From contig OZ245842.1 in assembly GCA_965228895.1 (NCBI GenBank), positions 704,001 to 768,000 of the forward strand: a stretch of DNA of 64,000 nt. The letters run 5' to 3'. Below are positions 26,256 through 45,876 of this stretch, piece by piece. A program made the translations under genes and the position numbers. The stretch's first letter is position 1. The number at the start of each line of letters is the position of its first letter. This DNA is from Alphaproteobacteria bacterium. GTDB taxonomy: Bacteria; Pseudomonadota; Alphaproteobacteria; SP197. The notes beneath the pieces are model-generated. The model was not told the DNA's origin, made no database searches, and was given only the letters and a program-made list of their open reading frames with translations.

Positions 26256-26377
26256 GACGATAAACCCGTGAATGGGCGGCAATCGACCGTGCCAAACCAT
26301 AGGCGTAGCCAATGGCTGCCCTTCGGTTTGTCGCGGTTATCGCCGTGAACTCCAAAAGAACCCAGGGAGGCGGGAGT

Positions 26378-27442
26378 ATGTTCAAGCGTTTTGAGGGTAA
26401 GAGTTTTGCCGAGCGGCATGGTGCCGGCCGGCTGAGCACCATGGTGGCCGGCATCGCGGTCGGCGCTGCCATCGGTATTGGCACCTTGATGACGGCGCCG
26501 GCTCAGGCTGAAGAAGGTGTGATCCGTTGCGCCTATCCCTATTGGTTCGGCTTCGCGCCGGTGCCGGTGGCGAGCGCCATGGGCTATTTCGAAGAGGAAG
26601 GCCTTGAGGTCACGACCGTCTTCGATAACGACCGCGCGAACGTCTATCCCGGTCTCGAAATCGGCGATCTCGACTGCACCATGCGCACGATCGGCGAGCA
26701 TATGTCGCGCCCGCTGGCCGAAGACTCGAACTTCGTCGTCATCGGCCTGATCGATATCTCCGTTGGCGCCGACGGTGTTGTCGCCGCACCCGATGTCAAC
26801 GATGTTACCGACCTGATCGGCCGCACCTTCGCCGGCGAGATCAACCACCCGGGCACATTGATGACAGCGCACGCGTTGAGGGAAGCCGGTCACAGCTTTT
26901 CCGACGTCAACGTCCGACTGATCAACACCGATGACAGCCCGGCCGTCTTCGAAGACGACGATGTCGCCGCCGTCGCGACGTGGGAACCGATGATGAGCGA
27001 CATTGTCGCCAACACGTCGCGCGAGGGTTCGAAGATCCTGCTGTCGTCGGCAGACTTCAACGGCCTGATCACCGACGTCGTCATCGTCAACAAGGAAGAC
27101 TATGAGGCCGACCGCGAGAAGTACGCGGCGTTCATGCGCGGCATCTATCGCGCCGTCGATCTCTACAACAACGACCCCGAGAAGTTCCTCGAGGTCGCGG
27201 CGCCGGCCTATGAGGTCACGCCCGAGCAGATGAAGGTCGATATTGAAGGCGTCTACTACACCTCCTACGAGGATGCGGTCGAATACTTCGGCACCGATGG
27301 TCAGCCGGCCAAGCTTGCCGACGTGGTCAACGCGCTGAACGATATTCAGGTCGAGCTCGACCTGATGGACGCGCCGATCTCGATGGAGGCCATGTCGGAC
27401 CCGAGCCTGACCGACGGTCTGTTCGACGGCAAGACGCGCTAA
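26378..27442 (+). CDS. ABC transporter substrate-binding protein, NitT/TauT family
   Basis: Signal peptide; YWFGFAP, DISVGADG, ATWEP, LITDV; very acidic. Confidence 0.88.
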   Translation: MFKRFEGKSFAERHGAGRLSTMVAGIAVGAAIGIGTLMTAPAQAEEGVIRCAYPYWFGFAPVPVASAMGYFEEEGLEVTTVFDNDRANVYPGLEIGDLDCTMRTIGEHMSRPLAEDSNFVVIGLIDISVGADGVVAAPDVNDVTDLIGRTFAGEINHPGTLMTAHALREAGHSFSDVNVRLINTDDSPAVFEDDDVAAVATWEPMMSDIVANTSREGSKILLSSADFNGLITDVVIVNKEDYEADREKYAAFMRGIYRAVDLYNNDPEKFLEVAAPAYEVTPEQMKVDIEGVYYTSYEDAVEYFGTDGQPAKLADVVNALNDIQVELDLMDAPISMEAMSDPSLTDGLFDGKTR

Positions 27443-27474
27443 CCGTCTACCGTCTGACCTTTTTGTGTATCCCA

Positions 27475-27509
27475 CACCGGCTTTGCGGGCTTAGCCTGCA
27501 AAGCCGGTG
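27475..27509 (+). terminator. Stem-loop after the SBP gene (mRNA-stabilising or partial terminator)
   Basis: CACCGGCTTTGCGGGC-TTA-GCCTGCAAAGCCGGTG, 16-bp stem with one G-U; no U-tract downstream. Confidence 0.55.
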
Positions 27510-27574
27510 GCGGGCGCCTGTCATGTGTGTCCGGCTCCGGCGCACCGCGCGCTCCATCAAGGAGGACTGACCTG

Positions 27575-28363
27575 ATGGCCCTCAGATCGGCGCTGTTCGC
27601 CTATCGCGGCGAATCGTCGCCCCGTACCGACCTCGTCCTGGCCGTGGTCGCCTTGGCTGGTTTCTTTATCGTCTGGTACTTGATCTCAGTTTTCGAGATC
27701 GTGTCGCAGCGGTTCCTGCCGACACCCATCGACGTTGTGGTGGCGCTATGGACCATGCTGACGGTCAACAACTTCATCGAGGATATCTGGATCTCGGTGG
27801 CGCGGGTTTGGGGCGCGTTCGCGCTCTCGGTCGTGTTTGCCGTGCCGATCGGCATCTGGATGAGCAGCTACCGCATCGTCGGCACGCTGATCGAGCCGGT
27901 TGTCGACTTTATCCGCTATCTACCCGTGCCGGCCCTCGTACCGCTCTTGATTATCTGGTTCGGCATTGGCGAAGCCTCGAAGATCGCGGTGTTGTTTATG
28001 GGGACGTTCTTTCAGCTTGTTTTGCTGATCGCCGACGATGCCAAGCGCGTGCCTAAGGAATTCATCGAGATCGGCTATACCCTTGGCGGCAAGCCACGCA
28101 ACATCACCAAGGACATCGTGTTCCGGTCGATGATGCCGAACCTGGTCGACAACCTCAGGATCACACTGGGTTGGTGTTGGACCTGGATCATCGTTGCCGA
28201 GATCGTCGCCGCCAACAGCGGCATTGGGCACGCTATCTGGTCGATGCGCCGGTTCCTCAAGACGCCGGAAGTGATGGCCGGTATTCTGACCATCGGCATT
28301 ATCGGCCTGGTGACCGATCAGTTGATCCGTGTCGCCCATCGCCGTTACTTCCGGTACCTCTAG
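27575..28363 (+). CDS. ABC permease, NitT/TauT family
   Basis: AGGAGG RBS; RYLPVPALVPL, WFGIGE, AEIVAANSGIG. Confidence 0.9.
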   Translation: MALRSALFAYRGESSPRTDLVLAVVALAGFFIVWYLISVFEIVSQRFLPTPIDVVVALWTMLTVNNFIEDIWISVARVWGAFALSVVFAVPIGIWMSSYRIVGTLIEPVVDFIRYLPVPALVPLLIIWFGIGEASKIAVLFMGTFFQLVLLIADDAKRVPKEFIEIGYTLGGKPRNITKDIVFRSMMPNLVDNLRITLGWCWTWIIVAEIVAANSGIGHAIWSMRRFLKTPEVMAGILTIGIIGLVTDQLIRVAHRRYFRYL

Positions 28364-28372
28364 GAGCAGGCG

Positions 28373-29185
28373 ATGGTCGATCCATCAAGATTTGTCGATG
28401 TCCGTGGTGTCTCGAAAGTGTTTGAGACGGGCGGGCGTGTCGTCGAACCGATTGCCGTCATCAACGACGTCTCGATGACCTTGGCAGAGGGTGAATTCGT
28501 CGTCTATCTCGGCCCTTCCGGCTGCGGCAAGACGACCCTGATGCGCATCGTCGGCGGCCTGGAGACTGCGTCATCCGGCGAGATCTGGCTGGCTGACGAG
28601 AAGGTCACCGGGCCTGATCGGCGCAAGGGCATGGTGTTTCAGACCTACACCTCGTTTCCCTGGCTGACGGTCTCGGAAAACATTCACTTCGGCACCAAGT
28701 ACCGCACCGACATTTCGCCGAAGCAGAAGCAAGAGATTTCCGACCACTATCTCGACCTCGTCGGCCTCAACAAGTTCGCCGACTTTCACGTCAACCGCAT
28801 CTCGGGCGGTATGCGCCAACGTGTCGCTATTGCGCGAACCCTTGCCGCTGAGCCCGACATTTTGCTGATGGACGAACCGTTTGGCGCCCTTGATGCACAG
28901 ACCCGTGAACATCTGCAGGTCCAGATGCGCGAGATCTCGCGGATCGAGAACAAGACGGTGATTTTTGTGACCCACGATGTCGAGGAGGCGATCTTTCTTG
29001 CTGATCGCATCGTGATCTTTTCCGCGCGCCCGGCGACGATTGTCGAAGAAATCGACGTGACCCAAAAGCTGCCGGTTCACCGCGACATGACGACCAAGGA
29101 GACAGAGGACTTCTTCCACCTGCGCAACCATGTGCGTGACGTCATGCGACACCTGGAGACCGATGACGATGCGGTGGACGTGTAG
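28373..29185 (+). CDS. ABC ATP-binding protein, NitT/TauT family
   Basis: GPSGCGKT, ISGGMRQR, MDEPFGALD, VTHD. Confidence 0.93.
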   Translation: MVDPSRFVDVRGVSKVFETGGRVVEPIAVINDVSMTLAEGEFVVYLGPSGCGKTTLMRIVGGLETASSGEIWLADEKVTGPDRRKGMVFQTYTSFPWLTVSENIHFGTKYRTDISPKQKQEISDHYLDLVGLNKFADFHVNRISGGMRQRVAIARTLAAEPDILLMDEPFGALDAQTREHLQVQMREISRIENKTVIFVTHDVEEAIFLADRIVIFSARPATIVEEIDVTQKLPVHRDMTTKETEDFFHLRNHVRDVMRHLETDDDAVDV

Positions 29186-29971
29186 GTGACCGGCATGGCG
29201 ACCATGGGACTTGAAGGCAAAAAGGTGGTGATCACCGGCGGTAGCCGCGGGGTGGGATTGGGGATTGCTGAAGGGTTCGCCGGCGTTGGCTGTGACCTCA
29301 CGCTGATCGCCCTGGATGACGAGGTCGAGGACGTCGCCGCCCAACTGGCGGACAAGTACGGTTGCCCCGTGCGCGGCTTTCTATGCGACATCACCGATCG
29401 CGGCAGCTTGGACGCGGTGGCGCAGCAGATCGACCGGGTCGATGTGCTCGTCAACAACGCTGGCCTAGAACTCATCACGCCAATTGAAGACGAAGACCCG
29501 GATATCGAAGAGACGTTCCGACGCATCGTCGACATCAACGTCATGGGGACCTACTACGTCACACGGCGTTGCCTGCCCAAGATGCCGGATGGTGGGCGCA
29601 TCATCCTGACCGCATCGCAGTGGGCGAAGTCGGCGGTCGGCGAGTTCAGCGCCTATTGCGCGTCAAAACACGCCAACCTGGGTTTCATGCGCAGCCTGGC
29701 CAAGGAACTGGGGCCGCGCGGCATCAGCGTCAACGCGGTTTGCCCAGGCTGGGTCCGCACCATCGCCAGCATGCGTTCGCTCGCTGCCATGGCGCGCCGC
29801 GTCGACCGCGCCGAGAGCGACTTGTTGGATGAGATTGTCGCGGCCCAGGCGTTCCCCGGATTGATGGAGCCGCGTGAGATGGCCGACACCTATCTGTTCC
29901 TGGCTTCCGATGCGGCGCGCAACATTACCGGCCAAGCCATTACCGTCGACCGTGGTGACATATTGGTCTGA
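29186..29971 (+). CDS. Short-chain dehydrogenase/reductase (start may be 29195 or 29204)
   Basis: TGGSRGVG, NNAG, YCASK, VCPGWVRT. Confidence 0.9.
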   Translation: MTGMATMGLEGKKVVITGGSRGVGLGIAEGFAGVGCDLTLIALDDEVEDVAAQLADKYGCPVRGFLCDITDRGSLDAVAQQIDRVDVLVNNAGLELITPIEDEDPDIEETFRRIVDINVMGTYYVTRRCLPKMPDGGRIILTASQWAKSAVGEFSAYCASKHANLGFMRSLAKELGPRGISVNAVCPGWVRTIASMRSLAAMARRVDRAESDLLDEIVAAQAFPGLMEPREMADTYLFLASDAARNITGQAITVDRGDILV

Positions 29972-29985: not shown

Positions 29986-31347
29986 TCAGGGTCCAATCAC
30001 GACCAGCTTCAAGTCGTTCACGTTGGTGCCGGTAGCACCGGTCATAATCAGCGATCCCATACCGTCCAGAGCCGGCGTGGCGTTGTGGCGCCGCAGCACG
30101 TCGTGGAGGTCGATGCCGGCCGCTGTTGCGCGTGCCATGCTCGATCCATCAACCAGACCGCCCGCTGCATCCGAAGGGCCGTCGGAACCGTCGGTATCGA
30201 TCCCCAACAGGGCGACATCATCCAGACCATCCAGATGGATAGCACCGGCTACGGCGAATTCCTGGTTGGGACCGCCTACACCGTGTGCGCCGTCGATCGT
30301 GACAGTGGTCTCGCCACCGCCGATCAGAACGCAAGGCGCAGGGATGGGATGACCGCTCAGCCGGACCTCATGCGCCATGGCTGCCATGGTTCGTCCGAGC
30401 TCACGGCTCTCACCCTCGAACGCCGTCGATAACAGGAGCGGCTGAAAGCCAAGCGCCTCGGCGCGCCGGGCGGCGGCGTGGCATGCGGCATCGGCGGCGA
30501 CGAGGACATGATCAATCCGATCGAGATGGGCGAGGTCGGCGTCTTTCGGTGTCTCCTGCGAAGGTCCGGCATGTTTCAGGTAATCGGCGATGGCGGCTGG
30601 AATGATCGGCCACAGGTTGTACTTGTCGAGCGTATGCCGTGCATCGTCGAAGGTTGCGGTATCGGGGACCGTCGGGTCGGTGATGTAGTCGAGAGCATCG
30701 CCGATAACGTCGGACACCGTCACGTTGATCAGGATGGTCCCAGCAGGCAACGCAGCAGCCAGCCGCCCCCCTTTCACGGTACTGACGTGTTTGCGCACAG
30801 CATTGATTTCGCGAATGTTCGCACCGCAGGTCAGCAGTTTGCGATTAAGCGCCTTCTTGTCGTCAAGCGAAACGCCGGAAACAGGCGAGACGAACAAAGC
30901 CGAGCTACCGCCCGTCACCGCAGCGATGACCACATCGCCCGGCCGCACGGCCTTCAGCAGATCGACGGTGCGCCCGGCTCCTTCCAATGACATCTCGTCG
31001 GGCACCGGGTGGGCGGCGTGCATGAGTTCGATATGCGTCAGACGACCTTGTTGCCCGGTCTTGCAGACGACAAGACCTGCGTCAACGCGTGCACCGAGCA
31101 TGTCATCAAGGACCTTGGCAATAGGAAACGTCGCCTTGCCGGTACCGATGACAAAGACCCGTCGCCCATCCAGATCAATGGCGCGTTGGCCGATCTTCAG
31201 GACGTTACCGTCAAGGGAGAGAAGGCTGGCGGCCGCTGCGCCAGGATCGCAAGCTGAGAGTGCGCTTTCGACGAGATCGAGCGCGACCTCACGCGCCGGA
31301 TTGGCGGCCTGAAGCAGTGCCTCGCGATTGGTAACGATCGGCTTCAT
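29986..31347 (-). CDS. Type-2 glycerate kinase family protein (DUF4147/MOFRL, TtuD-like)
   Basis: GTGKA, AAHPVPD, GGSSAL, INAVRKH, SDVIGD, GGETTV, TDGSDG, TGTNVND. Confidence 0.9.
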   Translation of the reverse strand: MKPIVTNREALLQAANPAREVALDLVESALSACDPGAAAASLLSLDGNVLKIGQRAIDLDGRRVFVIGTGKATFPIAKVLDDMLGARVDAGLVVCKTGQQGRLTHIELMHAAHPVPDEMSLEGAGRTVDLLKAVRPGDVVIAAVTGGSSALFVSPVSGVSLDDKKALNRKLLTCGANIREINAVRKHVSTVKGGRLAAALPAGTILINVTVSDVIGDALDYITDPTVPDTATFDDARHTLDKYNLWPIIPAAIADYLKHAGPSQETPKDADLAHLDRIDHVLVAADAACHAAARRAEALGFQPLLLSTAFEGESRELGRTMAAMAHEVRLSGHPIPAPCVLIGGGETTVTIDGAHGVGGPNQEFAVAGAIHLDGLDDVALLGIDTDGSDGPSDAAGGLVDGSSMARATAAGIDLHDVLRRHNATPALDGMGSLIMTGATGTNVNDLKLVVIGP

Positions 31348-31380: not shown

Positions 31381-32664
31381 TCAGCCAGGCCGGTGAAAAT
31401 TGTGTCCGGCATAGGCGGCTGTCGCGCCGAGTTCCTCTTCGATCAGCAGCAGGCGGTTGTGTTTGGCGGTCCGTTCGCCGCGCACAGGCATGCCGGTCTT
31501 GATCTGGCCGCTGTTGAGTGCGACCACGAGGTCGGAAATGAGCGGATCTTCGGTCTCGCCGGACCGTTCGGAGACCTGCACGCCATAGCCATGGCGGTAG
31601 GCGAAGGCGGCGGCATCGAGCGCTTCGCTCAATGAGCCGATCTGGTTGACCTTGAACAGCATGGCGTTCGCGGCGCCGATGGCGACACCCATGCGCAGCC
31701 GTTCGACATTGGTGACGAACAAATCGTCGCCGACAATCTGCGTCTGCGGCAGTTCGTTGGTGACCTTGACGAACCCGTCGAGGTCGTCTTCATCGAGCGG
31801 GTCCTCCATGGAACCCAACGGATACTTGTCGGCGACTTGTTTATAGAGATCGATCAGGGCGTCACGGTCATAGTCGGTGTCGTCGAGAACGTAGACATCG
31901 CGCTCCTTGTCGAACCAATGGGTCGATGCGCAGTCGAGGCCGTAGACGATGTCTTCGCCGAAACCTGGCCGGTAGCCTGCCGCTTCGCAGGCGCGCTGCA
32001 TGAACTCGAAGGGCTCCCAGATGCCGCGCATGGGCGTGGCGAACCCGCCTTCATCGCCGGTGTTGGTGGCGAGAATGCCGTACTTCTCAATGACGAGATC
32101 GCGCAGCGCCTCGTTGATCTCCGTGGTGATCTGAAGCGCGTGAGCGTAGCTCTCCGCGCCCACGGGCATGATGATGAATTCTTGGATCTCCAGGTCGTTG
32201 GCGGTCAGCTTGCCGCCGTTCAGACAATTCATCAGCGGTACCGGCAGCACCCGGCAAAGCGGGTTGATATAGCGATAGAGCGGCAGGCCGGAGACCTGTG
32301 CGCCGGCGCGCGCGACTGCCAGAGAGACACCCAGGATCGCGTTGGCGCCCAGGCGGTTCTTGTTCGGTGTGCCGTCGAGTTCGCACATCACCTGGTCGAT
32401 CCGCCGCTGTTCGGTGACGTCCATGCCCAGGACCGCTTCGGCGATCTCGCCGGTGACATTGGAGACGGCCTGGCGAACGCCCTGGCCGAAGTAGCGGTTA
32501 CCGCCATCGTGCAGCACGCGGGCTTCGTGGGTGCCGGTCGAGCGGCCCTGGGGCACATCGGCGCGCCCGGCCATGATGCCGTCGACCCAGACATCGACCT
32601 GGACCGTCGGCCAGCCCCGGCAATCGATGATTTCGCGGGCTCGGATGTCTGAGATTTCGTTCAT
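31381..32664 (-). CDS. eno: Enolase paralog with altered substrate-binding residues
   Basis: Full enolase fold (REIID, GANAILGVS, QEF, GDEGG, GDDL, KVNQIG, QIKTG) but PQGRST, NGGKL and SERSGE deviate; symbol denotes family only. Confidence 0.85.
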   Translation of the reverse strand: MNEISDIRAREIIDCRGWPTVQVDVWVDGIMAGRADVPQGRSTGTHEARVLHDGGNRYFGQGVRQAVSNVTGEIAEAVLGMDVTEQRRIDQVMCELDGTPNKNRLGANAILGVSLAVARAGAQVSGLPLYRYINPLCRVLPVPLMNCLNGGKLTANDLEIQEFIIMPVGAESYAHALQITTEINEALRDLVIEKYGILATNTGDEGGFATPMRGIWEPFEFMQRACEAAGYRPGFGEDIVYGLDCASTHWFDKERDVYVLDDTDYDRDALIDLYKQVADKYPLGSMEDPLDEDDLDGFVKVTNELPQTQIVGDDLFVTNVERLRMGVAIGAANAMLFKVNQIGSLSEALDAAAFAYRHGYGVQVSERSGETEDPLISDLVVALNSGQIKTGMPVRGERTAKHNRLLLIEEELGATAAYAGHNFHRPG

Positions 32665-32750: not shown

Positions 32751-33707
32751 CTAGCGCCGCTGGTCAAACGATTCGGCGAGCAGGCACAAAACTTCATACA
32801 TCATGGTGGCGCCGACCAAGGCTGTATTGCCGCTGGGATCGAACGGCGGCGCGACCTCAACGATGTCGCCGCCGCGCAGATCGAGGCCGCGCAGGCCGCG
32901 CAGAAGTTTCTGAGCATCGATCGTCGTCATGCCGCCGACTTCCGGTGTGCCGGTGCCCGGCGCGTAAACGGGATCGAGGCCATCGACGTCGAACGAGATA
33001 TAGGTCGGGCCGTCGCCGACAACACGGCGCGCTTCGGCAATCACCTTGTCGATCCCAATCTCGGCGACTTCCTCCATGAACACGACGCGCATGCCGCTCT
33101 CTATGGAGAAATCCCAGCCTTCATTCGTGTTCTGCGCGCCGCGAATGCCAATCTGCACGGTGCGCTTGGGGTCGAGCAGGCCGTCCTCGACAGCACGGCG
33201 GAAGGGCGCGCCATGGGTGAACTTGCAGCCCAGGAACTCGTCCCATGTATCGGTGTGGGCGTCGATGTGCACCATGCCAAGCGGCTGGTCAGTCGCGATC
33301 GCGCCAAAGATCGGATAGGTGATCGAGTGGTCGCCGCCGGCAGACAGTGGCACGACACCTTGAGCGTGCAAACGGGTGTAGTAGTCCCGGATGTCGTCCA
33401 TCACCGCTTCGATCTCAAAGACGCGGTGAAACAGCACATCGCCCGCATCGACGACCTTGCAGAGTTCGTAGGGATTGACCCGCGTCACGTGATGGATGGC
33501 GCGCATCAGGCTCGACATGTTGCGGATTTCACGCGGGCCGTGCCGTGCGCCCGGCCGGTTGGTCGTGCCGCCGTCAAACGGCACGCCGATCATGGCGATG
33601 TCAACATCGTCAAATTCGGTTGCCAGGGGTGCCCGCATGAAAGTCGGGATTTCGGTATAGCGCGGCGCGGTCATCGGGTCGCGGCGTTGTTCGCTGTTCG
33701 ATGTCAC
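32751..33707 (-). CDS. Ureohydrolase, guanidinopropionase (GpuA)-like
   Basis: GGDHS, DAHTD, DVDGLDP, APGTGTPE; segments GGTTNRPGARHGPREIRNMSSLMR and ALVGATMMYEVLCLLA resemble P. aeruginosa GpuA from recall. Confidence 0.88.
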   Translation of the reverse strand: MTSNSEQRRDPMTAPRYTEIPTFMRAPLATEFDDVDIAMIGVPFDGGTTNRPGARHGPREIRNMSSLMRAIHHVTRVNPYELCKVVDAGDVLFHRVFEIEAVMDDIRDYYTRLHAQGVVPLSAGGDHSITYPIFGAIATDQPLGMVHIDAHTDTWDEFLGCKFTHGAPFRRAVEDGLLDPKRTVQIGIRGAQNTNEGWDFSIESGMRVVFMEEVAEIGIDKVIAEARRVVGDGPTYISFDVDGLDPVYAPGTGTPEVGGMTTIDAQKLLRGLRGLDLRGGDIVEVAPPFDPSGNTALVGATMMYEVLCLLAESFDQRR

Positions 33708-33837: not shown

Positions 33838-34779
33838 ATGCTGCATTCTCTCCACACACCCGATATTCGCCTGCTGCGCGTCTTCATGACCGTCGTCGAA
33901 TGCGGCGGGTTTTCGGCGGCGCAGATCGCGCTCAATGTCGGTCAGTCGACGATCAGCACGCAGATGAGCGATCTGGAAAGCCGGCTTGGGATGCGTCTGT
34001 GCCGGCGTGGGCGCAGCGGTTTCGCGCTGACCGAAGACGGCAAGTTCGTCTATGAGTCCGCGAAATCCCTGTTTCGCTCGATCGATCATTTTACCTCTGC
34101 GGTCAACGGCGCGCGTGGCGGGCTCAGCGGCGAGCTGCGTATCGCGTTTGCCGACGTGCTCTATCGCAACCCGGACTTTCGCCTGGCCCAGGCGATTGCC
34201 GTCTTTCTGGAGCGCGGCGCCGATGTTCGTTTCGATCTCAGCACGGCCAACCCTCTGGACATCGAACATGGCGTTCTCGGCGAACGTTACCACTTGGGCA
34301 TTCATACCTATCCCAGCCATGTCCCCGGCCTGCGTTACTATCCAGCGTTCAAGGAAGAGCAGACCCTCTATTGCGGGCGCAAACACCCGCTGTTCGAGCG
34401 GATCGGCAAGGGCCGGCTCAGCCTCGACGAGGTCCAGCAATTCGATTATGTGCAGCGGTCGTACTATGGCGGTGCCTTGTCGACCGGACCGTTCAAGCCG
34501 GCCAACATTGCGGCGTCGGCCGACAACATGGAAGCACTGCTGGTGCTCCTGATGTCCGGGCATTTTATCGGGCATCTGCCGACCGCCTGGGCCAGCGAGT
34601 ACGTCGCGCAAGGCGAACTGGCGCCGATTCTGCCCAAGAAGTCGCGCTACTACACGCAGTTCGAGATAGCGGTGCGTGTCGGTGGTCCCCAATCCATGCT
34701 GATCGAGACGTTTTTGTCGGACCTCAGGGAGCTGCTTCCAGGCGGCGGTTCTGACAAAAGCCTGGCGAAGGCGAGTTAG
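33838..34779 (+). CDS. LysR family regulator (GbuR/GpuR-like)
   Basis: DIRLLRVFMTVVECGGFSAAQ...LCRRGRSGF; divergent from the ureohydrolase. Confidence 0.9.
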   Translation: MLHSLHTPDIRLLRVFMTVVECGGFSAAQIALNVGQSTISTQMSDLESRLGMRLCRRGRSGFALTEDGKFVYESAKSLFRSIDHFTSAVNGARGGLSGELRIAFADVLYRNPDFRLAQAIAVFLERGADVRFDLSTANPLDIEHGVLGERYHLGIHTYPSHVPGLRYYPAFKEEQTLYCGRKHPLFERIGKGRLSLDEVQQFDYVQRSYYGGALSTGPFKPANIAASADNMEALLVLLMSGHFIGHLPTAWASEYVAQGELAPILPKKSRYYTQFEIAVRVGGPQSMLIETFLSDLRELLPGGGSDKSLAKAS

Positions 34780-34909: not shown

Positions 34910-36172
34910 ATGCTGCCCAACGTCGTTCGTGTTCGCCAACCCATCAAGACCGACCCGCTCAGCGATATCAAAGCGGCAGTCCATGGTGGTGTCGCCAAAC
35001 TCGACTTGGCGTCGCGGACACAACCCGGCGACACAGTCGCGGTCGGCTGCAGCAGCCGTGGCATCGCGAACTACGGACATATCGTCGCGCACACGGTCGC
35101 GGCGCTGAAGCAGGCGGGCCTCAAACCCTTCCTGTTTCCGGCCATGGGCAGCCATGGCGCGGCGACCGCCGAGGGCCAGCGCCAGGTCCTGATCGGACAG
35201 GGTATCGAGCCCGCCGAACTCGATGTCACCATCGAGTCATCGCTCGACGTCGATCAGATCGCCGCGCTGGACGACATGGGGATTCCCGTCCTGATCGACC
35301 GCCATGCCAACGGCGCCGACCACATCGTCCTGATCAACCGCGTGAAGTCGCACACGGAGTTCACCCACAGCTTCGAAAGCGGTCTGATGAAGATGATGGC
35401 GATCGGCATGGGCAAGGAGGAGGGCGCCACGCTCTATCACAAGGCGTTCATGGTTCACGGCTACGCGCCGGTCATTCGCGCCATCGCCGATACGATCCTC
35501 GACACCGGCAAGATCCTGTTTGGCGTCGGCATTGTCGAGGACGGGCGCGCGCAAACCGCCGGTGTCGAGATCTTATCCAGCGAAGACCTGATCGCCGGGG
35601 AGGAGGCGCTGCTGCGCCAGTCCAAAGCGTTCGAGCCACGCCTACCGCTCGACGACATCGACGTGTTGCTGATCGACGAGATGGGCAAGGACATCTCCGG
35701 TTCCGGTTTCGACACCAAGGTTGTCGGCCGGATCAACATGCCGCTTGTGACCGCCGACCCCGAAACGCCGCGTATCAAACGCATCGTCGTGTGCGACCTG
35801 ACCGCCGCGTCAGCGGGCAATGCGGACGGCGTCGGCAGTGCCGACTTCATCACCAGACGCCTCTACGACAAAATCGATATCAAGGCACTCTACGTGAATG
35901 CTATCGCCGGTTCGGAACCGGAGCACGCGCGTATTCCCATGGTCATGGAAACGGCGCGCGAGGCGACCGAAGCCGCGGCCGGATCGGTTGGTCTGATCGC
36001 AACGGACGATCTCAAGCTGGTTCGCATTCAAAACACCCTTCGCCTCGAGGCGATCGACGTGTCAACGGCATGCCTGCCGGCTCTGGCTGGCCGCCCGGAC
36101 ATCACGGCGACCGGCGAACCGGCCGAACTGGCTTTCGATGGCGATGGTGAACTCCACCCATTTGATGGCTAG
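34910..36172 (+). CDS. LarA-superfamily nickel-pincer-dependent isomerase (DUF2088/DUF362-type)
   Basis: SRGIAN, PAMGSHG, NRVKSH, ESGLMKM..IGMGK, GKDISGSG; directly upstream of larC-larE-larB. Confidence 0.78.
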   Translation: MLPNVVRVRQPIKTDPLSDIKAAVHGGVAKLDLASRTQPGDTVAVGCSSRGIANYGHIVAHTVAALKQAGLKPFLFPAMGSHGAATAEGQRQVLIGQGIEPAELDVTIESSLDVDQIAALDDMGIPVLIDRHANGADHIVLINRVKSHTEFTHSFESGLMKMMAIGMGKEEGATLYHKAFMVHGYAPVIRAIADTILDTGKILFGVGIVEDGRAQTAGVEILSSEDLIAGEEALLRQSKAFEPRLPLDDIDVLLIDEMGKDISGSGFDTKVVGRINMPLVTADPETPRIKRIVVCDLTAASAGNADGVGSADFITRRLYDKIDIKALYVNAIAGSEPEHARIPMVMETAREATEAAAGSVGLIATDDLKLVRIQNTLRLEAIDVSTACLPALAGRPDITATGEPAELAFDGDGELHPFDG

Positions 36173-36214: not shown

Positions 36215-37429
36215 ATGACAGCACCGCGCCATATCCACCTCGACATGCTTGGCGGCATTGCCGGCGATATGTTCGCCGCGGCGATGCTTGATGCGGTCCC
36301 GTCATCGCGTTCCGGCCTGTCCGAGGCGCTTTCGGCCGACGGCTTGGCGTCACTCGCCAAGGTGACATGGTCGGACGCCAGCAATGGCGGCATGGCCGGT
36401 GTCCATTTTTCCGTTAAGCCGCTTCACGCAGGCGGCCGCGATCACGATCACCGGTCCTATCGCGATGTCCTGAACATCCTGGCCGGCCTGCCGTTGGGCG
36501 ATACCGTCCGTGACCGCGCTCAGGCCATCTTCACCCTGCTCGCCGACGCCGAGGCGGCGGTTCACGGTGTCGACCGCGCGGATGTGGTGTTTCACGAGGT
36601 CGGCGCCGTCGACTCGATCATCGATATCGTCGCCGGCGCCTGGCTGATCGAGGCGGTCGCGCCCTGCACCTGGTCGTCGTCGCCGGTTCCGCTGGGATCG
36701 GGGCGTGTCCGGACCGACCACGGACCGCTCCCGGTGCCCGCGCCAGCCACGGCTCTGCTGCTGAAGGATATGCCGACCTTTGTCGACGGGATCGCCGGCG
36801 AACGGGTGACGCCGACCGGCGCGGCGCTGTTGAGGAACCTCAATCCGTCATTCGACGGTCCAGCGGCGGTGATGGCCTTGAACGCCACGGGTCACGGCCT
36901 TGGCACACGCCAGTTGGACGGCGTTGCCAATCTGCTGCGCGTGCTCGTGTTTGAAAGCAGCGTTTCGCAAGGGCAAGACGAGATTCTGTGCTGCACCTTC
37001 GAGATCGACGATCAGACACCGGAGGATCTGGCAGTCGGTCTCGATCGGCTGCGTGCTGTCGACGGTGTCGTCGACGTCTTGCAGATGTCTGCCATCGGCA
37101 AGCACGGGCGCCAGTGTACGCATATTCAGATCCTCGCCACGCCGGGACGCCTCGAACCGGTGGCCGAGGCCATCTTCCAGGAGACGACGACGCTGGGGCT
37201 CAGGTGGCAGCGCATGGCGCGACGTGTTCTCGCGCGTAACACCGTCGGAACCGACGGCGCCGGAACGTCCGTCGCCGTCAAGCTGGCAAAACGGCCGGAC
37301 GGCGTAACAACCGCGAAAGCGGAGATGGGCGATCTTGTCGATACACCTGGTGGTCACGAAGGCCGGCGTGTTGCACGTGCCAAGGCGGAAGGGTTGGCGC
37401 GCAATGGGGAAGGCGGGCGCAATGGCTGA
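36215..37429 (+). CDS. larC: Nickel insertion protein LarC (full length, single ORF)
   Basis: GIAGDMF, HDHR, FHEVGAVDSIIDI, HGPLPVPAPAT, TPTGAA, EIDDQTPE, ETTTLGLR. Confidence 0.92.
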   Translation: MTAPRHIHLDMLGGIAGDMFAAAMLDAVPSSRSGLSEALSADGLASLAKVTWSDASNGGMAGVHFSVKPLHAGGRDHDHRSYRDVLNILAGLPLGDTVRDRAQAIFTLLADAEAAVHGVDRADVVFHEVGAVDSIIDIVAGAWLIEAVAPCTWSSSPVPLGSGRVRTDHGPLPVPAPATALLLKDMPTFVDGIAGERVTPTGAALLRNLNPSFDGPAAVMALNATGHGLGTRQLDGVANLLRVLVFESSVSQGQDEILCCTFEIDDQTPEDLAVGLDRLRAVDGVVDVLQMSAIGKHGRQCTHIQILATPGRLEPVAEAIFQETTTLGLRWQRMARRVLARNTVGTDGAGTSVAVKLAKRPDGVTTAKAEMGDLVDTPGGHEGRRVARAKAEGLARNGEGGRNG

Positions 37430-38270
37430 CGTCAAGGCCGGCCTCTTGGCGCTTCTCGCTCAACCCAAGGGCACGGCCCTTCTGGACGTCTTGTCGGGGG
37501 TTGGCGACAAGGCGCTCGCGGTCAGTGGCGGTGTCGACAGCATGACACTCGCCGTTATCGCCCACCGTGCCGATCCCGAGAGCTCGACCATTTGCCATGC
37601 TGTGTCGCCGGCGGTGCCGCCGGAAGCGACGGAACGGGTCAGGCAATACGCCGAGAAGGAGGGTTGGCGCCTCGACCTGATTGACGCCGGTGAGTTTGAC
37701 GATCCGCGTTATCTCGCCAACCCGCTCGACCGCTGTTTCTTCTGCAAGACCGATCTTTACGGCGCCATCGCCGCAGGACGCGCGGGGACGACCTTGATGT
37801 CGGGCACCAATCTCGACGATCTCGGCGATTTCCGGCCGGGCCTGAAGGCTGCGGCGAACCACGATGTCATACATCCGTTCGTTGAAGCGAATTTCACCAA
37901 GGCCGACATTCGCGCGGCGGCCGATGCGCTTGGTCTGAGCGACATTAAGGTACTGCCCGCCATGCCGTGCCTGGCAAGCAGGATCGAGACGGGCCTTGCC
38001 GTTTCCCCGGACCTCGTGCGTAGCGTGCACGCCGCCGAGACGCTGGTTGCCAAGCACGTCGACGTTGCGACCGTGCGCTGCCGGGTCGCGCACAACGGCA
38101 TCCGCATCGAACTTGATGAGGATGCGCTCGCGGGCTTGAGTGGCCCAAGTCGAGACATGCTTGCGGACAAGATCGCTCAACTTTTCAGCCGGACCGATAC
38201 GGTACCTGGCGTTCTGTTTGCCGCCTACAAACAGGGTAGCGCGTTCATCGGCAAACCCGGCGATGACTGA
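37422..38270 (+). CDS. larE: NPN sulfur insertase LarE (CxxC-C type)
   Basis: SGGVDS PP-loop, RCFFCK, GTNLDDLGDFRPG, PCLASR; overlaps larC stop. Confidence 0.88.
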   Translation: MADVKAGLLALLAQPKGTALLDVLSGVGDKALAVSGGVDSMTLAVIAHRADPESSTICHAVSPAVPPEATERVRQYAEKEGWRLDLIDAGEFDDPRYLANPLDRCFFCKTDLYGAIAAGRAGTTLMSGTNLDDLGDFRPGLKAAANHDVIHPFVEANFTKADIRAAADALGLSDIKVLPAMPCLASRIETGLAVSPDLVRSVHAAETLVAKHVDVATVRCRVAHNGIRIELDEDALAGLSGPSRDMLADKIAQLFSRTDTVPGVLFAAYKQGSAFIGKPGDD

Positions 38271-38934
38271 GACGCCGGCGTTCCGGTTTGACCGTGCGCG
38301 CGAATCGCGGATCGGTTTTGGCGAAGCGGTGTTCTGCGAGAGCAAAACCGCCGAGCAGATTGCGGCGATCCTGCATGAAGTCGGCGAGGATACGCCGATC
38401 CTGCTGACCAGGTTGAGTGTCGAGAAGGCCGACGCGCTGCCGCAGGCCCTGCGCAACCGCCTCGATTTCGATGATTTGTCACGGACCGCCTATCTACGGC
38501 CCCGGCATCCGCTGCGCGATACCGCGCGTGTGGCCGTCTTGAGCGGGGGAACCTCCGATTTGCCGGTCGCGCACGAGGCGGTCAGAACGCTGGGGTTTCA
38601 CGGCGAACCCAGCCAGATCCATCACGATGTCGGCGTCGCCGGCTTGTGGCGGTTGGAGGCGTGCCTGGATGACATCCGCGCCATGCCGTTGGTCATCGTG
38701 ACAGCGGGCATGGAGGGTGCCCTGGTCAGCGTCGTCGCGGGCCTGGTGCCCGGCGTCGTGATCGCCCTGCCGACGTCGGTCGGCTATGGCGCGGCGGAAG
38801 GTGGGCGTACCGCCATGTTTGCCGCGCTCACGTCTTGCGCGCCGGGCATCACGGTCGTCAACATCGACAATGGCTACGGCGCAGCGTGCGCCGCGCTGCG
38901 GCATCTCAACATGCTGGATCGCAGAAGCGGCTGA
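38263..38934 (+). CDS. larB: NaAD carboxylase/hydrolase LarB (PurE-like fold)
   Basis: EAVFCESKT, GTSDLPVA, DVGVAG, AGMEGAL, PTSVGYG, SCAPG, NIDNGYGAA. Confidence 0.93.
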   Translation: MTETPAFRFDRARESRIGFGEAVFCESKTAEQIAAILHEVGEDTPILLTRLSVEKADALPQALRNRLDFDDLSRTAYLRPRHPLRDTARVAVLSGGTSDLPVAHEAVRTLGFHGEPSQIHHDVGVAGLWRLEACLDDIRAMPLVIVTAGMEGALVSVVAGLVPGVVIALPTSVGYGAAEGGRTAMFAALTSCAPGITVVNIDNGYGAACAALRHLNMLDRRSG

Positions 38935-38940: not shown

Positions 38941-39906
38941 TCAGGCGCTCTTGCCCTTTTCGTGGAAGATGAAGCCGAGCACGTTCATTAGGAACTGAGC
39001 AGCCAGGAACGCGGTCGATCCCGTGTGATCGTAGTCCGGTGCGACCTCGACAAAGTCGATGCCCACAATGTCGCCCTTCTTGGAGAGACCCTGAAACAGC
39101 TCCAGCACCTCGTAGTAAAGGAAACCGCCATGACTTGGCGTCCCGGTGCCCGGCGCGATCGACGGGTCGAACCCGTCGACATCGATGGTGGCGTAGTAGC
39201 GCACGCCGTCAGGAATACGCTCGAGCACGCCCTGGGTGCCCAACCGCCGGACATCGCGCACCGAGAGAATATCGGAGCCTGCCTTGCGGGCGGCCGCATA
39301 GTCGTCGCGGTTCGATGACGAGACGTTGCGGATGCCGAGCTGACTGAAACCGGTGACGTGTTTCATTTCGGATGCCCGGCGCAGGGGGTTGCCGTGGCCG
39401 TAGCGCACGCCGTGCCGCTCGTCGACGAAGTCCAGATGCGCGTCGATATGGATGATGTGCACGGGTTCCTGGTCGGCGAAGGCGCGAATGCAGGGAATAT
39501 GCACCGAATGATCGCCGCCCAGGACGACCGGCAGCGCGCCGGCATCAAGGATGGCGCGCACGCCCTTCTCGATATTGTCATGACTCTGGGTCGTGTCGGT
39601 ATGGATCATGTCGGCATCGCCGATATCAACCATGCGTACCTGATCGACCGGCATGTAGCTGATGTCATCCTCGAAGTCGTAGGCGCCGCCGTGGCCGAAC
39701 GAGAACAGCGTGGACGCCTCGCGGATGGCGCGGGGCCCGAAACGGGCGCCGGCGCGGTACTGGGTGCCCATGTCGAATGGCGCGCCCAGCACGGCGACGT
39801 CGGCCTTGATGGCCGACCAATCCAGACACGGCGGCTGCTTGCCGAAGGTGCAGTGGCCGACGAATGGCAGGTCGAGACGTCCTTCTTCGTAAGCGTTCGA
39901 GGTCAC
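38941..39906 (-). CDS. Ureohydrolase / agmatinase family protein (second, distinct subfamily)
   Basis: GARFGP, GGDHS, DAHLD, DVDGFDP, APGTGTPS; GTG 39906 with AAGGGGG RBS (alternative start 39924). Confidence 0.88.
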   Translation of the reverse strand: MTSNAYEEGRLDLPFVGHCTFGKQPPCLDWSAIKADVAVLGAPFDMGTQYRAGARFGPRAIREASTLFSFGHGGAYDFEDDISYMPVDQVRMVDIGDADMIHTDTTQSHDNIEKGVRAILDAGALPVVLGGDHSVHIPCIRAFADQEPVHIIHIDAHLDFVDERHGVRYGHGNPLRRASEMKHVTGFSQLGIRNVSSSNRDDYAAARKAGSDILSVRDVRRLGTQGVLERIPDGVRYYATIDVDGFDPSIAPGTGTPSHGGFLYYEVLELFQGLSKKGDIVGIDFVEVAPDYDHTGSTAFLAAQFLMNVLGFIFHEKGKSA

Positions 39907-40018
39907 GAACACCCCCTTTGTCAATTCACTATGCCAAGGCTACGCGGGCAGGTAAGGCCACACGTTTAGGGCCGAAGCACCACCCAGATCAAGCGATCTG
40001 GCGAAGTTCAGCCGGTGT

Positions 40019-42367
40019 TCAAACGCCTCCCAAGGCCCGGACCACACGCTCCGGCGTCATCGGCAGATCGACCCAGACGCCGGTCGCGTTGTAGACCGCC
40101 TGAGCCACCGCCGCGATCGAGGCGGCGATCGGCGATTCGCCCGCGCCGCGCGCGCCAAACGGGCCGACGGGGTCGTAGGACTCGCTGAACATGACCTTGG
40201 CCTGATGCGGGAAGTCGGCCGCGCGCAGCAGTTTGTAGTCCAAGAGGTTGGCGTTCTTGATCGCGCCGGTCTCCTCGTCGAACACCAGGTGCTCGTAGAT
40301 CGCGAAACCGGCACCGCAAATGGCGCCGCCGACAACCTGGTTCTTCAAGACCTGGGGGTTGACCACGGTGCCGCTGTCCTGGGCCGCCAGGAAGTCGAGC
40401 AGCTTGATCTGGCCGGTCTCGATATCGACCTCGACCTCGACGAACTGTGCGGCGAACTGACGGGCGAAGGTGGTCGCCGGTGGCATCGGCACGGACGGGC
40501 GGCCTGTGATCGATGACGTCTGACCGAGCGTATCGGAGCGGATCTCGTGCAACACCTGGGTGATCGGGAAACGCCGGTTGGAGTCCGGCTGGCCCTTGGG
40601 ATGGACGACGCCTTCGGTGATATCGAGATCGCCGGGATCGACGCCATCGAACAACTCGCGCGCGGCGATCTCCAGAAGCTGGCGTCGCGCGTCCATGGTC
40701 GCCGCGCGCGTCGCCCAGCCGACCCGGTACATGGTGTTACTGGCAAGCGAGCCGTGGCTCCAGGGACAGGAATCCGTGTCGCCGGTCTCGATTTCGACCA
40801 TGTCCAAGGACACGCCCATGGCTTCGGCGGCGACCTGGGATTGCGTGGTCTCGCTGCCCTGGCCCTGACGGCCGACGCTGCAATGGACCTTCAGGCTGCC
40901 ATCCGGATTGATGCGCACGACGGCCGACGTGCTGCCCTCGAATTCGACGCCGCAGACATGGGCGCCGGTGCCGACACCGACAGCACGATGCAAGGGGCCG
41001 TCGACGGTGTGGGGTTTGCCCCAGCCTTTCCACCGCTCCTTCCAGCCGAACGCCTCGGCGCCCATGGTCAGGATATCCTCGGTCGAGCCGCTGGAGAGAT
41101 GGAACAGTTCCGGCCAGTCTTCCTTCAGATCGTCGCGAATCCCGTCGATGTACTCTTTGATGTTGCCCTTCATGTTGTGTTTGCTGTGCTGCATGCGCAG
41201 CTCTTCGCCGGGCTTGATCTGGTTCTTGATGCGGAAGTCGACGGGATCCATGCCGACTTTCTCGGCCAGCTGATCGGCAACCCGTTCGACGCTGGCGCCC
41301 AACGTGCAATCGCCGACGCCGCGCATGCAGCCGGCGGTCAGCAGGTTCGTGTTGATGCCGTGGACGGCATAGTGGCCGTGCTGGGCGCGGCCCCACATGT
41401 CGACACAGAAGAAGCCGACATCGTCCTTGAATCCATATCCGCCGTTGTCGATGAGGTGGTCGAACTGGGCGAGCGTGATGGTGCCGTCCTTTGTGCAGCC
41501 CATGCGGCCGCGCGTGCGTTCGAGGTGGCGGCGCTTGACGGTCGCCATGCACTCTTCGTTGGTCAGTTCGATCTTCACCGGGCGGCGGGCCTTTTTGGCC
41601 AGCAACACGGTAAGGATCATGAAGTTGTTGCTCCACCACTGACCGAAGGAACTGCCGCAGGGTAGCGCCATGACGCGGATCTTGCTGAGCGGGATGCCGA
41701 GCGCTTCGTGAACGCCGTCACGCAGTTCAGACGGCGTCTGCGATGACGTCCACAGCGTCACCTTGTCGCCCATCCATTCGGCGATGGCGGCATTGCGGCC
41801 AAGTGGCGCGTATTGCTGGCTTTCGTAGAAGATGTCGCAGTCGACCGTGATGTCGGCGTTCTTCTCACCCTCCGCCACGTCACCCCACTCGACGATATAG
41901 GGTTCGCGTTCGTTGCCTTCGTCACGGATTTGGGGCGCGTCCGCGTTGCGCGCTTTTTCCATGTCCAGGACGTGGGGCAGGACTTCGTACTCGACCTCGA
42001 TCAGGCTCAGCGCGTGTTCGGCGATGTCTTCGGTCTTGGCGGCGACGGCGGCCATGTCGTCGCCGACAAAGCGGCCGATACCATCGAGCACCTTGCCGCG
42101 GTAGTTAAACCAAGCGGCTTCCCAGTCCAGACCGGGCGTGTCGAGGTGGGTCAGCACGCCATAAACACCGGGCAGGGCCTCGGCCTTGCTGGTATCGATG
42201 CGCGTGATCCGGGCGTGCGGGTGCGGGCAGCGCAGGATCTTGCCATAGGCCATGTTCTGGACTTTCAGATCGACCGCGTACTTCAGCGCACCCGTTACCT
42301 TTTCGCTGGCGTCCTTGACGTGGACGCCCTTGCCGACGACGGAAAAGCTCTTGTCTTCGTAACCCAT
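40019..42367 (-). CDS. Xanthine dehydrogenase family molybdopterin-binding subunit
   Basis: KVTG..Y, PHA.I, MRGVG, GQGSET, GDTD, QVVGG, GARGAGE. Confidence 0.92.
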   Translation of the reverse strand: MGYEDKSFSVVGKGVHVKDASEKVTGALKYAVDLKVQNMAYGKILRCPHPHARITRIDTSKAEALPGVYGVLTHLDTPGLDWEAAWFNYRGKVLDGIGRFVGDDMAAVAAKTEDIAEHALSLIEVEYEVLPHVLDMEKARNADAPQIRDEGNEREPYIVEWGDVAEGEKNADITVDCDIFYESQQYAPLGRNAAIAEWMGDKVTLWTSSQTPSELRDGVHEALGIPLSKIRVMALPCGSSFGQWWSNNFMILTVLLAKKARRPVKIELTNEECMATVKRRHLERTRGRMGCTKDGTITLAQFDHLIDNGGYGFKDDVGFFCVDMWGRAQHGHYAVHGINTNLLTAGCMRGVGDCTLGASVERVADQLAEKVGMDPVDFRIKNQIKPGEELRMQHSKHNMKGNIKEYIDGIRDDLKEDWPELFHLSSGSTEDILTMGAEAFGWKERWKGWGKPHTVDGPLHRAVGVGTGAHVCGVEFEGSTSAVVRINPDGSLKVHCSVGRQGQGSETTQSQVAAEAMGVSLDMVEIETGDTDSCPWSHGSLASNTMYRVGWATRAATMDARRQLLEIAARELFDGVDPGDLDITEGVVHPKGQPDSNRRFPITQVLHEIRSDTLGQTSSITGRPSVPMPPATTFARQFAAQFVEVEVDIETGQIKLLDFLAAQDSGTVVNPQVLKNQVVGGAICGAGFAIYEHLVFDEETGAIKNANLLDYKLLRAADFPHQAKVMFSESYDPVGPFGARGAGESPIAASIAAVAQAVYNATGVWVDLPMTPERVVRALGGV

Positions 42368-42384
42368 GTCAGGTCCTCCTTCGC

Positions 42385-42876
42385 TCAGTCGGCCGCGCGC
42401 CTGCCGGCGCTATCGCTCGCCCGCATCTTTTCCGCCGCTTTCATCACGGCATCGACGATGTAGGGATAGGCGCCGCAGCGGCAGATGTTGCCGCTCATGG
42501 CGATCGCCGTTTCCTCGCGTGTCGGGTCGGGGTTTGCCGCCAGAAACGCCTTGGCGCTCATGACAAAACCGGGCGTGCAGAAGGCGCACTGAAACCCCTG
42601 TTCTTCGATGAAGGCCTCTTGGATCGGGTGCAGGTCGTCGCCTGTGCCCAGACCTTCGATGGTCTGAAGGTCGTGCTGTTCGGCCTGGTTGACGAGGACC
42701 ATGCATGAGGTGACGGGTTCGCCGTCGACCAGCACCGTGCACGAGCCGCACTCACCTTCCGAACAGGAGACGCGCACGCCAATAAGGCCGAGGTCGTTGC
42801 GCAGGACGTCGGCCAGCGTGCGGTTGGGCGCCACGTCCAACTCATGCGTCTCGCCATTGACCTTGAGTGTCGTCAT
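42385..42876 (-). CDS. Xanthine dehydrogenase family 2x[2Fe-2S] subunit
   Basis: CSEGECGSC...C, QCAFCTPG, GNICRC. Confidence 0.95.
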   Translation of the reverse strand: MTTLKVNGETHELDVAPNRTLADVLRNDLGLIGVRVSCSEGECGSCTVLVDGEPVTSCMVLVNQAEQHDLQTIEGLGTGDDLHPIQEAFIEEQGFQCAFCTPGFVMSAKAFLAANPDPTREETAIAMSGNICRCGAYPYIVDAVMKAAEKMRASDSAGRRAAD

Positions 42877-43760: not shown

Positions 43761-43791
43761 TATCTTTCTCCCACACCGTCTCAACAGGAGA

Positions 43792-43833: not shown

Positions 43834-43845
43834 AGGGTGGTCAAC

Positions 43846-45873: not shown

Positions 45874-45876
45874 GAC

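Follow-up and report, generated by a model that had tools for sequence, protein, structure and literature searches.

The locus examined here raises the question of whether a protein that retains nearly the whole catalytic apparatus of an enolase still dehydrates 2-phosphoglycerate (2-PGA) or may have turned to a different elimination. It lies in a window of 64,000 nucleotides (the whole stretch of DNA that was analysed), positions 704001-768000 of the single 5.53-Mb contig (OZ245842.1, assembly GCA_965228895.1) that makes up the genome of an Alphaproteobacteria bacterium (GTDB SP197), and it centres on an enolase-family gene, whose product is called P0001, followed by a kinase gene of the MOFRL/DUF4147 type. 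We consider it probable that P0001 has shifted away from plain 2-PGA dehydration, and we tentatively propose, from sequence evidence, that it may be a 2-phospho-3-aminopropanoate ammonia-lyase which would yield phosphoenolpyruvate (PEP) and NH4+ within a kinase-lyase module. The conserved, mis-annotated enolase variant is real, the genomic evidence for a dedicated kinase-lyase module is strong, and the C-N lyase chemistry is plausible but unproven. The gene and its key codons are located as follows.

31381..32664, minus strand: enolase-family gene of the Cys13/Glu373 clade (P0001, 427 amino acids), from its open reading frame (ORF), translation, Pfam and NCBIfam matches, key-residue table and tree
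31567..31569, minus strand: GAA codon of Glu366, at the position of yeast His373 in SHRSGE, read from the sequence; Glu in 119 of 120 close homologs
32206..32208, minus strand: codon of Leu153, at the position of yeast His159 on a closing loop (NGGKL), computed from ORF start and residue number
32542..32544, minus strand: codon of Arg41, at the Ala38 position beside the Mg-binding Ser39 (PxGRSTG), computed from the ORF
32611..32622, minus strand: codons of Cys15 to Trp18 (DCRGWP for DSRGNP), computed from the ORF

By profile, P0001 belongs to the enolase family. It matches Pfam Enolase_N and Enolase_C, with a weak additional match to MR_MLE_C, and scores 504 bits over residues 4-423 against the NCBIfam enolase equivalog TIGR01060, whose cut-off is 300 bits. 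Its closest solved relative in the PDB comparison is the enolase entry 2pa6 (466 bits), which we take to be the Methanocaldococcus jannaschii enolase; it is about 51% identical to the canonical eno product of its own genome (tblastn), and databases, which contain several hundred enolases of the Glu373 type, label the proteins of its clade phosphopyruvate hydratase. The N- and C-terminal MAAL domains found no match on P0001 at E <= 0.001 in Pfam, which places it outside the methylaspartate ammonia-lyase family. The first-pass annotation of this DNA had described an enolase with an intact core and several replaced motifs, and every motif that it named was found in the translation: LDCAS, MEDP, VGDD, KVNQIG, GDEGG, IQEF and QIKTG are intact, and SERSGE, NGGKL, PQGRSTG and DCRGWP stand where the host's canonical enolase has SHRSGE, NGGAH, PSGASTG and DSRGNP. 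The sequence also agrees with the GAA codon that it had reported for the first of these replacements. Residue numbers that are given for the clade are those of yeast enolase, which, like the roles of His373, His159, Ser39, Glu211 and Lys345, we assigned through alignment to canonical enolases. On this assumption, the Mg ligands Asp246, Glu295, Asp320 and Ser39, the base Lys345 and the acid Glu211, together with Glu168, Arg374-Ser375, Lys396 and Gln167, are kept in P0001 and in the whole clade. P0001 is thus an enolase-family member by profile that lacks two residues by which enolases are recognised, having Glu366 for His373 of SHRSGE and Leu153 for His159 of NGGxH.

Among the 120 best database homologs of P0001, which span 73-100% identity, SERSGE and DCRGWP each occur in 119, NGGKL in 117 and PxGRSTG in 112. 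Sequencing error, against which the first-pass annotation had already argued from the multi-base nature of several changes, and a pseudogene are both ruled out by the intact frame and by the presence of the changes in 117-119 of these 120 homologs. Position 36 (Ala in 72 of the homologs, Gln as in P0001 in 24 and Ser in 13) is no hallmark because its residue varies within the clade. A tree (FastTree, LG+gamma) was built from an alignment of 158 sequences, namely 19 clade samples, 14 locus-derived homologs, the host's canonical eno and 124 full-length representatives taken from a 50%-identity library. All 28 sequences with Cys13 and Glu or Asp at 373 fall into one clade of 29 (support 0.945), the remaining member having Val373, so that the SERS-type proteins do form a conserved clade; it covers 57-100% identity. 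Its sister group, weakly supported (0.447), is made up of other enolase-like proteins of non-canonical type, in which position 373 is G, N, P, Y, A, L, M or V. The top match in a search of the 50%-identity library was 51% identical, and the clade's own representative was not at the top.

These results bear directly on an ordinary explanation, namely that P0001 is an enolase isozyme (2-PGA to PEP) in a glycerate-making catabolic operon, in which glycerate from serine, hydroxypyruvate or tartronate semialdehyde would be phosphorylated by the linked kinase acting as a glycerate 2-kinase and the His replacements would be tolerated or serve kinetic tuning. The TIGR01060 score and the retention of all Mg, base, acid, phosphate and carboxylate residues are in its favour. 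However, His is found at 373 in every alignment row with an otherwise complete canonical residue signature, and Glu373 and Cys13 are fixed over the whole identity range of the clade. Taking these points with those on gene copies, kinase and neighbourhood given below, we regard an ordinary isozyme as unlikely.

Within the Glu373 group, Cys13 and Glu373 are constant, and Trp at 16 becomes F, Y, L or D in early branches. Leu159 was seen in the aligned clade sequences solely in combination with Arg38, and His159 is retained in the early-branching loci L025 and L026 (both Leu38) and L028 and L029 (both Arg38). Because these four loci retain His159, the change of His373 to Glu is the primary one and that of His159 to Leu a later one; the earlier claim that both substrate histidines are replaced thus holds for P0001 but not for the group as a whole.

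How the replaced residues might serve another elimination can be considered by comparison with canonical enolase (EC 4.2.1.11), with which P0001 shares the fold, the domain pair, the two-Mg site, the Lys base, the Glu acid and the contacts to phosphate and carboxylate, and with which it likely shares the product PEP. Unlike canonical enolase, P0001 has Glu for His373, Leu for His159, Arg for Ala38, Cys for Ser13 and Trp for Asn16, its gene is an extra copy linked in an operon to its own kinase, and the proposed leaving group is ammonium rather than hydroxide. In yeast enolase structures, His373 lies beside the C3 hydroxyl together with Glu168 and Glu211. Its replacement by Glu swaps the charge with size nearly unchanged, and the other changes sit on two lids that close over the substrate. 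We infer substrate, leaving group, residue roles and product as follows. The linked MOFRL kinase would phosphorylate the 2-hydroxyl of a small 3-amino-2-hydroxy acid, in the simplest case isoserine (3-amino-2-hydroxypropanoate), and the enolase-like enzyme would bind the 2-phospho-carboxylate as enolase does, through the two-Mg site, Arg-Ser, Lys and Gln. Because the catalytic residues are retained, the substrate would still be a Mg-bound 2-phospho-carboxylate whose C2 proton is taken by Lys338, the retained base of P0001; the C3 ammonium, held by the new Glu366 and the retained Glu162 and Glu205, would be expelled, giving PEP and NH4+. The new Glu would suit a C3 -NH3+ because its carboxylate would offset the extra +1 charge relative to -OH, and ammonium leaves without acid catalysis.

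Several known systems resemble parts of this scheme. 3-Methylaspartate ammonia-lyase, a member of the enolase superfamily with a single Mg and without a phosphate site, abstracts the alpha proton of a carboxylate substrate with loss of ammonia, and the scaffold is therefore capable of C-N elimination; P0001 belongs to a different subgroup, and the resemblance is one of proposed mechanism, not of membership. Phosphorylation followed by an ammonia-releasing elimination is known from ethanolamine kinase with ethanolamine-phosphate phospho-lyase and from hydroxylysine kinase with its phospho-lyase. The proposed module would share this two-step logic, but those phospho-lyases are pyridoxal phosphate (PLP) enzymes that expel phosphate, whereas the module would use a metal-dependent enolase and keep the phosphate as PEP. 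ComA (phosphosulfolactate synthase) interconverts PEP plus sulfite with a 2-phospho-3-substituted propanoate, which is the reverse of the type of reaction proposed for P0001, although ComA is of an unrelated family, the group at C3 is anionic in its case, and the enzyme serves biosynthesis. According to PMC8154272, the lyase PbfA, which unlike P0001 is PLP-dependent and has an unrelated fold, carries out eliminative deamination of the phosphonate analogue of isoserine and is inactive on D,L-isoserine. Our literature search, which covered few subscription journals, found no description of the Glu373 enolase clade, no isoserine-deaminating enzyme and no bacterial isoserine catabolism.

The same active-site data can be read in terms of other substrates. 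With the same chemistry, the C3 group might be a substituted amine (methylamine, urea or guanidine) or sulfite lost from 2-phospho-3-sulfolactate, or the substrate might be longer, which we hold to be rather unlikely. Arg41, which lies on the closing loop, might serve as an anion-binding residue, and the early branches differ at 16, 38 and 159, suggesting several specificities in the group; however, a new Glu next to two retained Glu residues would make a poor sulfonate site, and the preserved residue size argues against a bulkier C3 substituent. A C4 dicarboxylate is also conceivable, such as phosphorylated 3-hydroxyaspartate giving phosphoenol-oxaloacetate and ammonium with Arg41 on the extra carboxylate. 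The replacement of Ala38 by Arg fits this, but the residue is Leu in L025 and L026 and the otherwise unaltered surroundings of C3 leave little room, and we consider a C4 substrate very improbable.

Both genes of the module are additional copies in the genomes that carry them. The host's canonical eno is located at 2.243 Mb (637 bits), which rules out P0001 as the sole enolase of its genome, and a second MOFRL/DUF4147 kinase at 3.843 Mb scores 295 bits versus 218 for the linked one; a class-I glycerate kinase was not found in the host genome. Five further carrier genomes were reached via L005, L009, L010, L014 and L030. A canonical eno (627-691 bits) accompanies the variant (490-528 bits) in all five, in line with the earlier expectation of a canonical eno elsewhere, and all five have two MOFRL kinases, the unlinked one outscoring the linked one each time. 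The variant enolase and the linked kinase are thus both duplicates of unlinked, better-scoring copies in six out of six carrier genomes, a pattern that argues against an ordinary isozyme.

29986..31347, minus strand: MOFRL/DUF4147 kinase (glycerate-2-kinase-like), 33 bp downstream of the enolase gene; Pfam DUF4147 and MOFRL

Linkage to this kinase was examined in 30 related loci with a Glu373-type enolase (L003-L032). In 28 of them the variant enolase is followed, in the same orientation, by a MOFRL kinase, which is its immediate neighbour in 27; in L024, a gene of the aspartate/ornithine-carbamoyltransferase family stands between the two. The contig of L020 ends 802 bp downstream of the enolase, so kinase linkage is not assessable there, and L027 (Acidobacteriota, 9737-11137) has a broken variant enolase (residues 4-292 matched) with no kinase in about 9.7 kb of downstream sequence and may be a decaying module. 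No kinase was found near the enolase in any of the four canonical-type loci L033-L036, of which L036 has almost no downstream sequence. The PDB relatives of the linked kinase are 1x3l and 2b8n. Its homology to glycerate 2-kinases would suit an enolase isozyme fed with glycerate, but it scores far under the cut-offs of the glycerate 2-kinase equivalogs (213 bits against 550 for NF041176 and 159 against 670 for NF040791), although these low scores may partly reflect distance because the models carry archaeal names (GlyK_Thmprot, gly_kin_Thpl). In addition, comparison of 27 linked kinases with 6 unlinked paralogs revealed clade-specific changes at conserved positions of its motifs (Ser145 to Thr, Ser223 to Thr and Asn421 to His, with Gly224 to Asp in 25 of 27). 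Kinases are also joined to enolase-like proteins in one polypeptide. P0193 (908 amino acids), from the representative library and of a sister lineage, is naturally fused in the order DUF4147-MOFRL-Enolase_N-Enolase_C and shows Leu373, Ile211, Asp168 and Glu167 in its enolase part; it is of another non-canonical type than P0001, and it forms a Rosetta-stone link between the MOFRL kinase and enolase-like families with a different specificity type. P0178 and P0251 are fusions of an N-terminal APH-type kinase with enolase-like domains in which residue 373 is Ala or Gly and residue 168 is Asp. Because of these three fusions, coupling of kinases with enolase-like proteins is a recurrent theme.

The distribution of the variant is scattered. 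Among 40 relatives of the host, it was found only in two genomes of the same genus (93-95% identity), and the other 38 gave no match to the P0001 query above 55% identity. Relatives of near 80% identity come from entries whose labels include Acidobacteriota, Arenicellales, Mycobacteriaceae, Desulfobacterales and Candidimonas, and the variant enolase is also present on two large plasmids. This scattered distribution therefore points to a horizontally moving accessory module. The same-class genomes G032, G033, G035, G038 and G040 have a canonical enolase plus a second enolase-like match with 39-42% identity to P0001.

The genes around the module in the window may provide further information about its substrate.

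32751..33707, minus strand: arginase-family ureohydrolase, nearest 3-guanidinopropionase, 86 bp upstream of the enolase gene; Pfam Arginase
33838..34779, plus strand: LysR-family regulator, divergent from the ureohydrolase, enolase and kinase genes; ORF and NCBIfam LysR-type matches, same place in L009
34910..36172, plus strand: divergent LarA-like nickel-pincer isomerase (NCBIfam group 22); NF052515, 452 bits, cut-off 400
36215..37429, plus strand: LarC, for making the nickel-pincer cofactor of the LarA-like enzyme; Pfam and NCBIfam
37335..38270, plus strand: LarE, for making the same nickel-pincer cofactor; Pfam and NCBIfam
38140..38934, plus strand: LarB, nickel-pincer cofactor synthesis, last of the group 36215..38934; Pfam and NCBIfam
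26312..27442, plus strand: NMT1/SsuA-like binding protein of a NitT/TauT-type ABC importer; Pfam and NCBIfam
27527..28363, plus strand: permease of the NitT/TauT-type ABC importer; Pfam and NCBIfam
28373..29185, plus strand: ATPase of the NitT/TauT-type ABC importer, which spans 26312..29185; Pfam and NCBIfam
29186..29971, plus strand: short-chain dehydrogenase/reductase (SDR), 3-hydroxybutyrate-dehydrogenase-like, at the end of the transporter operon; Pfam and NCBIfam

The top PDB match of the ureohydrolase is the 3-guanidinopropionase 3nip (409 bits versus 293 for the guanidinobutyrase 3nio, agmatinases also being well behind), and it scores 290.5 bits on the NCBIfam agmatinase subfamily, slightly below the cut-off of 302. 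Such a neighbour fits a 2-phospho-3-amino acid as the substrate of P0001 because the substrate of 3-guanidinopropionase is a three-carbon acid bearing nitrogen at C3, and in the window it would first free the amine from a 3-guanidino acid. The guanidinium leaving group which the first-pass annotation had offered beside ammonium is less likely, since the ureohydrolase gene directly upstream would free the amine first; this also argues that a guanidino group would be lost before the lyase step, against a lyase acting on substituted C3 amines, and a C3 monocarboxylate as the substrate of the nearest enzyme speaks against C4 dicarboxylates. The protein encoded at 34910-36172 scores above the cut-off and has cofactor-synthesis genes alongside, and it is thus a LarA nickel-pincer isomerase, which might act as a C2 racemase or epimerase fixing the C2 configuration of the 2-hydroxy acid. 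LarA-like homologs adjoin the module in L003, L004, L009, L010, L030, L019, L021 and L032, and one lies about 5.5 kb past the kinase in L042; together with 2-hydroxyacid dehydrogenases, such isomerases are in keeping with a kinase that acts on a free, chiral 2-hydroxy acid. No mention of LarA group 22, enolase, isoserine or guanidino compounds was found in PMC11770544. The NitT/TauT-type importer and SDR genes run convergent with the kinase; the importer would also suit a C3 group other than a plain amine. The whole arrangement of ureohydrolase, LarA-like isomerase, importer and SDR recurs in L003, L004, L009, L010 and L030, and the SDR is kept in all six ureohydrolase-type loci (58-92% identity).

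A second operon with its own LysR regulator adjoins these genes (38941-46824 on the minus strand and 47129-48058 on the plus strand). It contains a NitT/TauT-type importer (NMT1 binding protein, ATPase and permease), a second arginase-family ureohydrolase and a three-subunit molybdenum hydroxylase of the xanthine-dehydrogenase family, a gene set suggestive of the breakdown of an N-heterocycle of the guanidino or amidino kind, which might feed the same pathway.

Pfam analysis of 190 neighbour ORFs from 26 loci revealed varied enzymes near the module elsewhere. C-N hydrolases and related proteins include creatininase (L018, L022, L024, L028 and L029), hydantoinase A/B (L008 and L011), a CN-hydrolase (L014), an M20 peptidase plus amidase (L007), hydrolases of the polysaccharide-deacetylase family (L004, L009 and L042), a carbamate-kinase-like protein (L016) and, in L024, Asparaginase_2 and the carbamoyltransferase-family gene between enolase and kinase, and they might uncap different precursors, with guanidino, ureido or cyclic groups. 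Aminotransferases (L005, L021 and L032), alanine dehydrogenase (L014, L018 and L022), ornithine-cyclodeaminase-like and DAO-type oxidoreductases recur as well, 2-hydroxyacid or 2-oxoacid dehydrogenases of several families are present in many loci, and amino-acid or amine-type transporters are of the LIV type in L006, L013 and L026, SBP_bac_3 in L012 and of the polyamine type in L014. Plasmid 2 of Paraburkholderia caribensis MWAP64 carries the eno and DUF4147 pair flanked by GntR and Lrp/AsnC regulators and an ABC system, together with an FAD oxidoreductase, RidA and a hydroxypyruvate-reductase-like (GhrA-like) gene; a set of oxidase, RidA and reductase could provide entry from amino acids of the 2,3-diaminopropionate type via the 2-oxo acid. 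In L066 (NZ_CP022016.1 454644-473456), part of a 473-kb plasmid under the label Salmonella enterica serovar India, the cluster contains pyruvate kinase, which would regain from PEP the ATP spent by the linked kinase. This cluster further includes an MFS transporter, the linked kinase, a D-Ala-D-Ala-ligase-like gene, GntR and GNAT, with IS200 and IS21 elements near; the D-Ala-D-Ala-ligase-like gene and GNAT lack an explanation in the proposed pathway.

These neighbourhoods offer something to each of the alternatives. For an enolase isozyme, the dehydrogenases, aminotransferases and alanine dehydrogenase in many loci and the GhrA-like reductase of P. caribensis are in keeping with supply of glycerate, and the single pyruvate kinase fits equally; however, the ureohydrolase, creatininase, carbamoyl-cleaving enzymes and amino-acid-type transporters would be superfluous for glycerate. 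Another C3 group is suggested by an MtmB-like methyltransferase, a corrinoid protein and an Ldh_2-family dehydrogenase in L025 and by UxaA/SuyB-like proteins in L020 and L024, but no sulfite exporter or sulfite oxidoreductase family was matched among the 190 ORFs. A C4 substrate might be read from Asparaginase_2 with the carbamoyltransferase-family gene in L024 and from an aspartate-aminotransferase-like gene in L021, yet dicarboxylate transporters are not recurrent, a TRAP system being present in L042 only.

For an ammonia-lyase acting on a 2-phospho-3-amino acid, as put forward by the first-pass annotation and developed here, the gene context is fitting, though circumstantial, and several points weigh against it. 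An aminotransferase or alanine dehydrogenase, a 2-oxoacid reductase, a kinase and an enolase also fit a route from serine through hydroxypyruvate, glycerate and 2-PGA to PEP, and the TIGR01060 score of P0001 far exceeds the enolase equivalog cut-off. The positions assumed for Glu366, Arg41 and Trp18 with respect to C3 and phosphate are taken over from known enolase structures. About 12 of about 29 loci have no C-N hydrolase in the scanned stretch, the neighbourhoods are heterogeneous, and the conserved SDR of the window has no place in the proposed pathway. The kinase change Gly224 to Asp was considered as a mirror of the Glu gain and rejected as non-specific because it is absent from L024-L026, which have Gly, and present in the P0193 fusion with Leu373. 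Isoserine, which is no established common metabolite, is called non-natural in PMC7057948. According to PMC11770544, there are LarA homologs for which glycerate racemisation is known, which suits an enolase isozyme as well.

Other enolase-like groups were observed in the course of this analysis. A second non-canonical group with His373 to Ala (Gly in P0251) and Glu168 to Asp comprises P0153, P0160, P0173, P0189, P0206, P0214, P0231, P0232, P0234, P0237, P0244, P0255 and P0259 and the fusions P0178 and P0251; judging from these residues, it may represent a further lyase coupled to a kinase, with a wider pocket at C3. Enolase-like genes from Dehalococcoidia (L037:5520-6806, L039:3671-5056 and L040:9536-11254), whose products are 37-38% identical to P0001, each have a MOFRL-like kinase gene directly upstream and show Asn373, Ser374, Arg375, Arg396 and Gln211 in pairwise alignment, with altered phosphate and acid sites. 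Among enolases with SHRSGE and NGG..H, P0130, P0141, P0144 and P0142 are predicted fusions with phosphoglycerate kinase, guanylate kinase, a phosphoglucose isomerase fragment or RpiB, which could be real or artefacts of metagenome gene calling.

To our knowledge, the enolase subgroup has been treated as monofunctional. We suggest, with considerable reserve, that it may hold a widespread, horizontally spread 2-phospho-3-aminopropanoate ammonia-lyase with a dedicated MOFRL "isoserine 2-kinase", forming a common end-point for capped C3 amino acids. If so, the net conversion would be of an amine-bearing C3 hydroxy acid and ATP to PEP and NH4+, ATP-neutral after pyruvate kinase, and this end-point would be shared by the catabolic routes for C3 amino acids capped with guanidino, ureido or cyclic amidine groups. 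The canonical enolase scaffold would then have been turned to C-N cleavage through a one-residue charge swap, and, given the MOFRL- and APH-kinase fusions, the module would be one case in a larger radiation of kinase-coupled enolase-like lyases. Hundreds of annotations and the metabolic models would be wrong if these proteins are ammonia-lyases. A cultured carrier with an annotated plasmid-borne locus, P. caribensis MWAP64, exists, and the finding, if true, would establish how compounds of the isoserine type are broken down and give a handle on the substrates of the flanking ureohydrolases, the creatininase-like enzymes and the uncharacterised LarA group 22.

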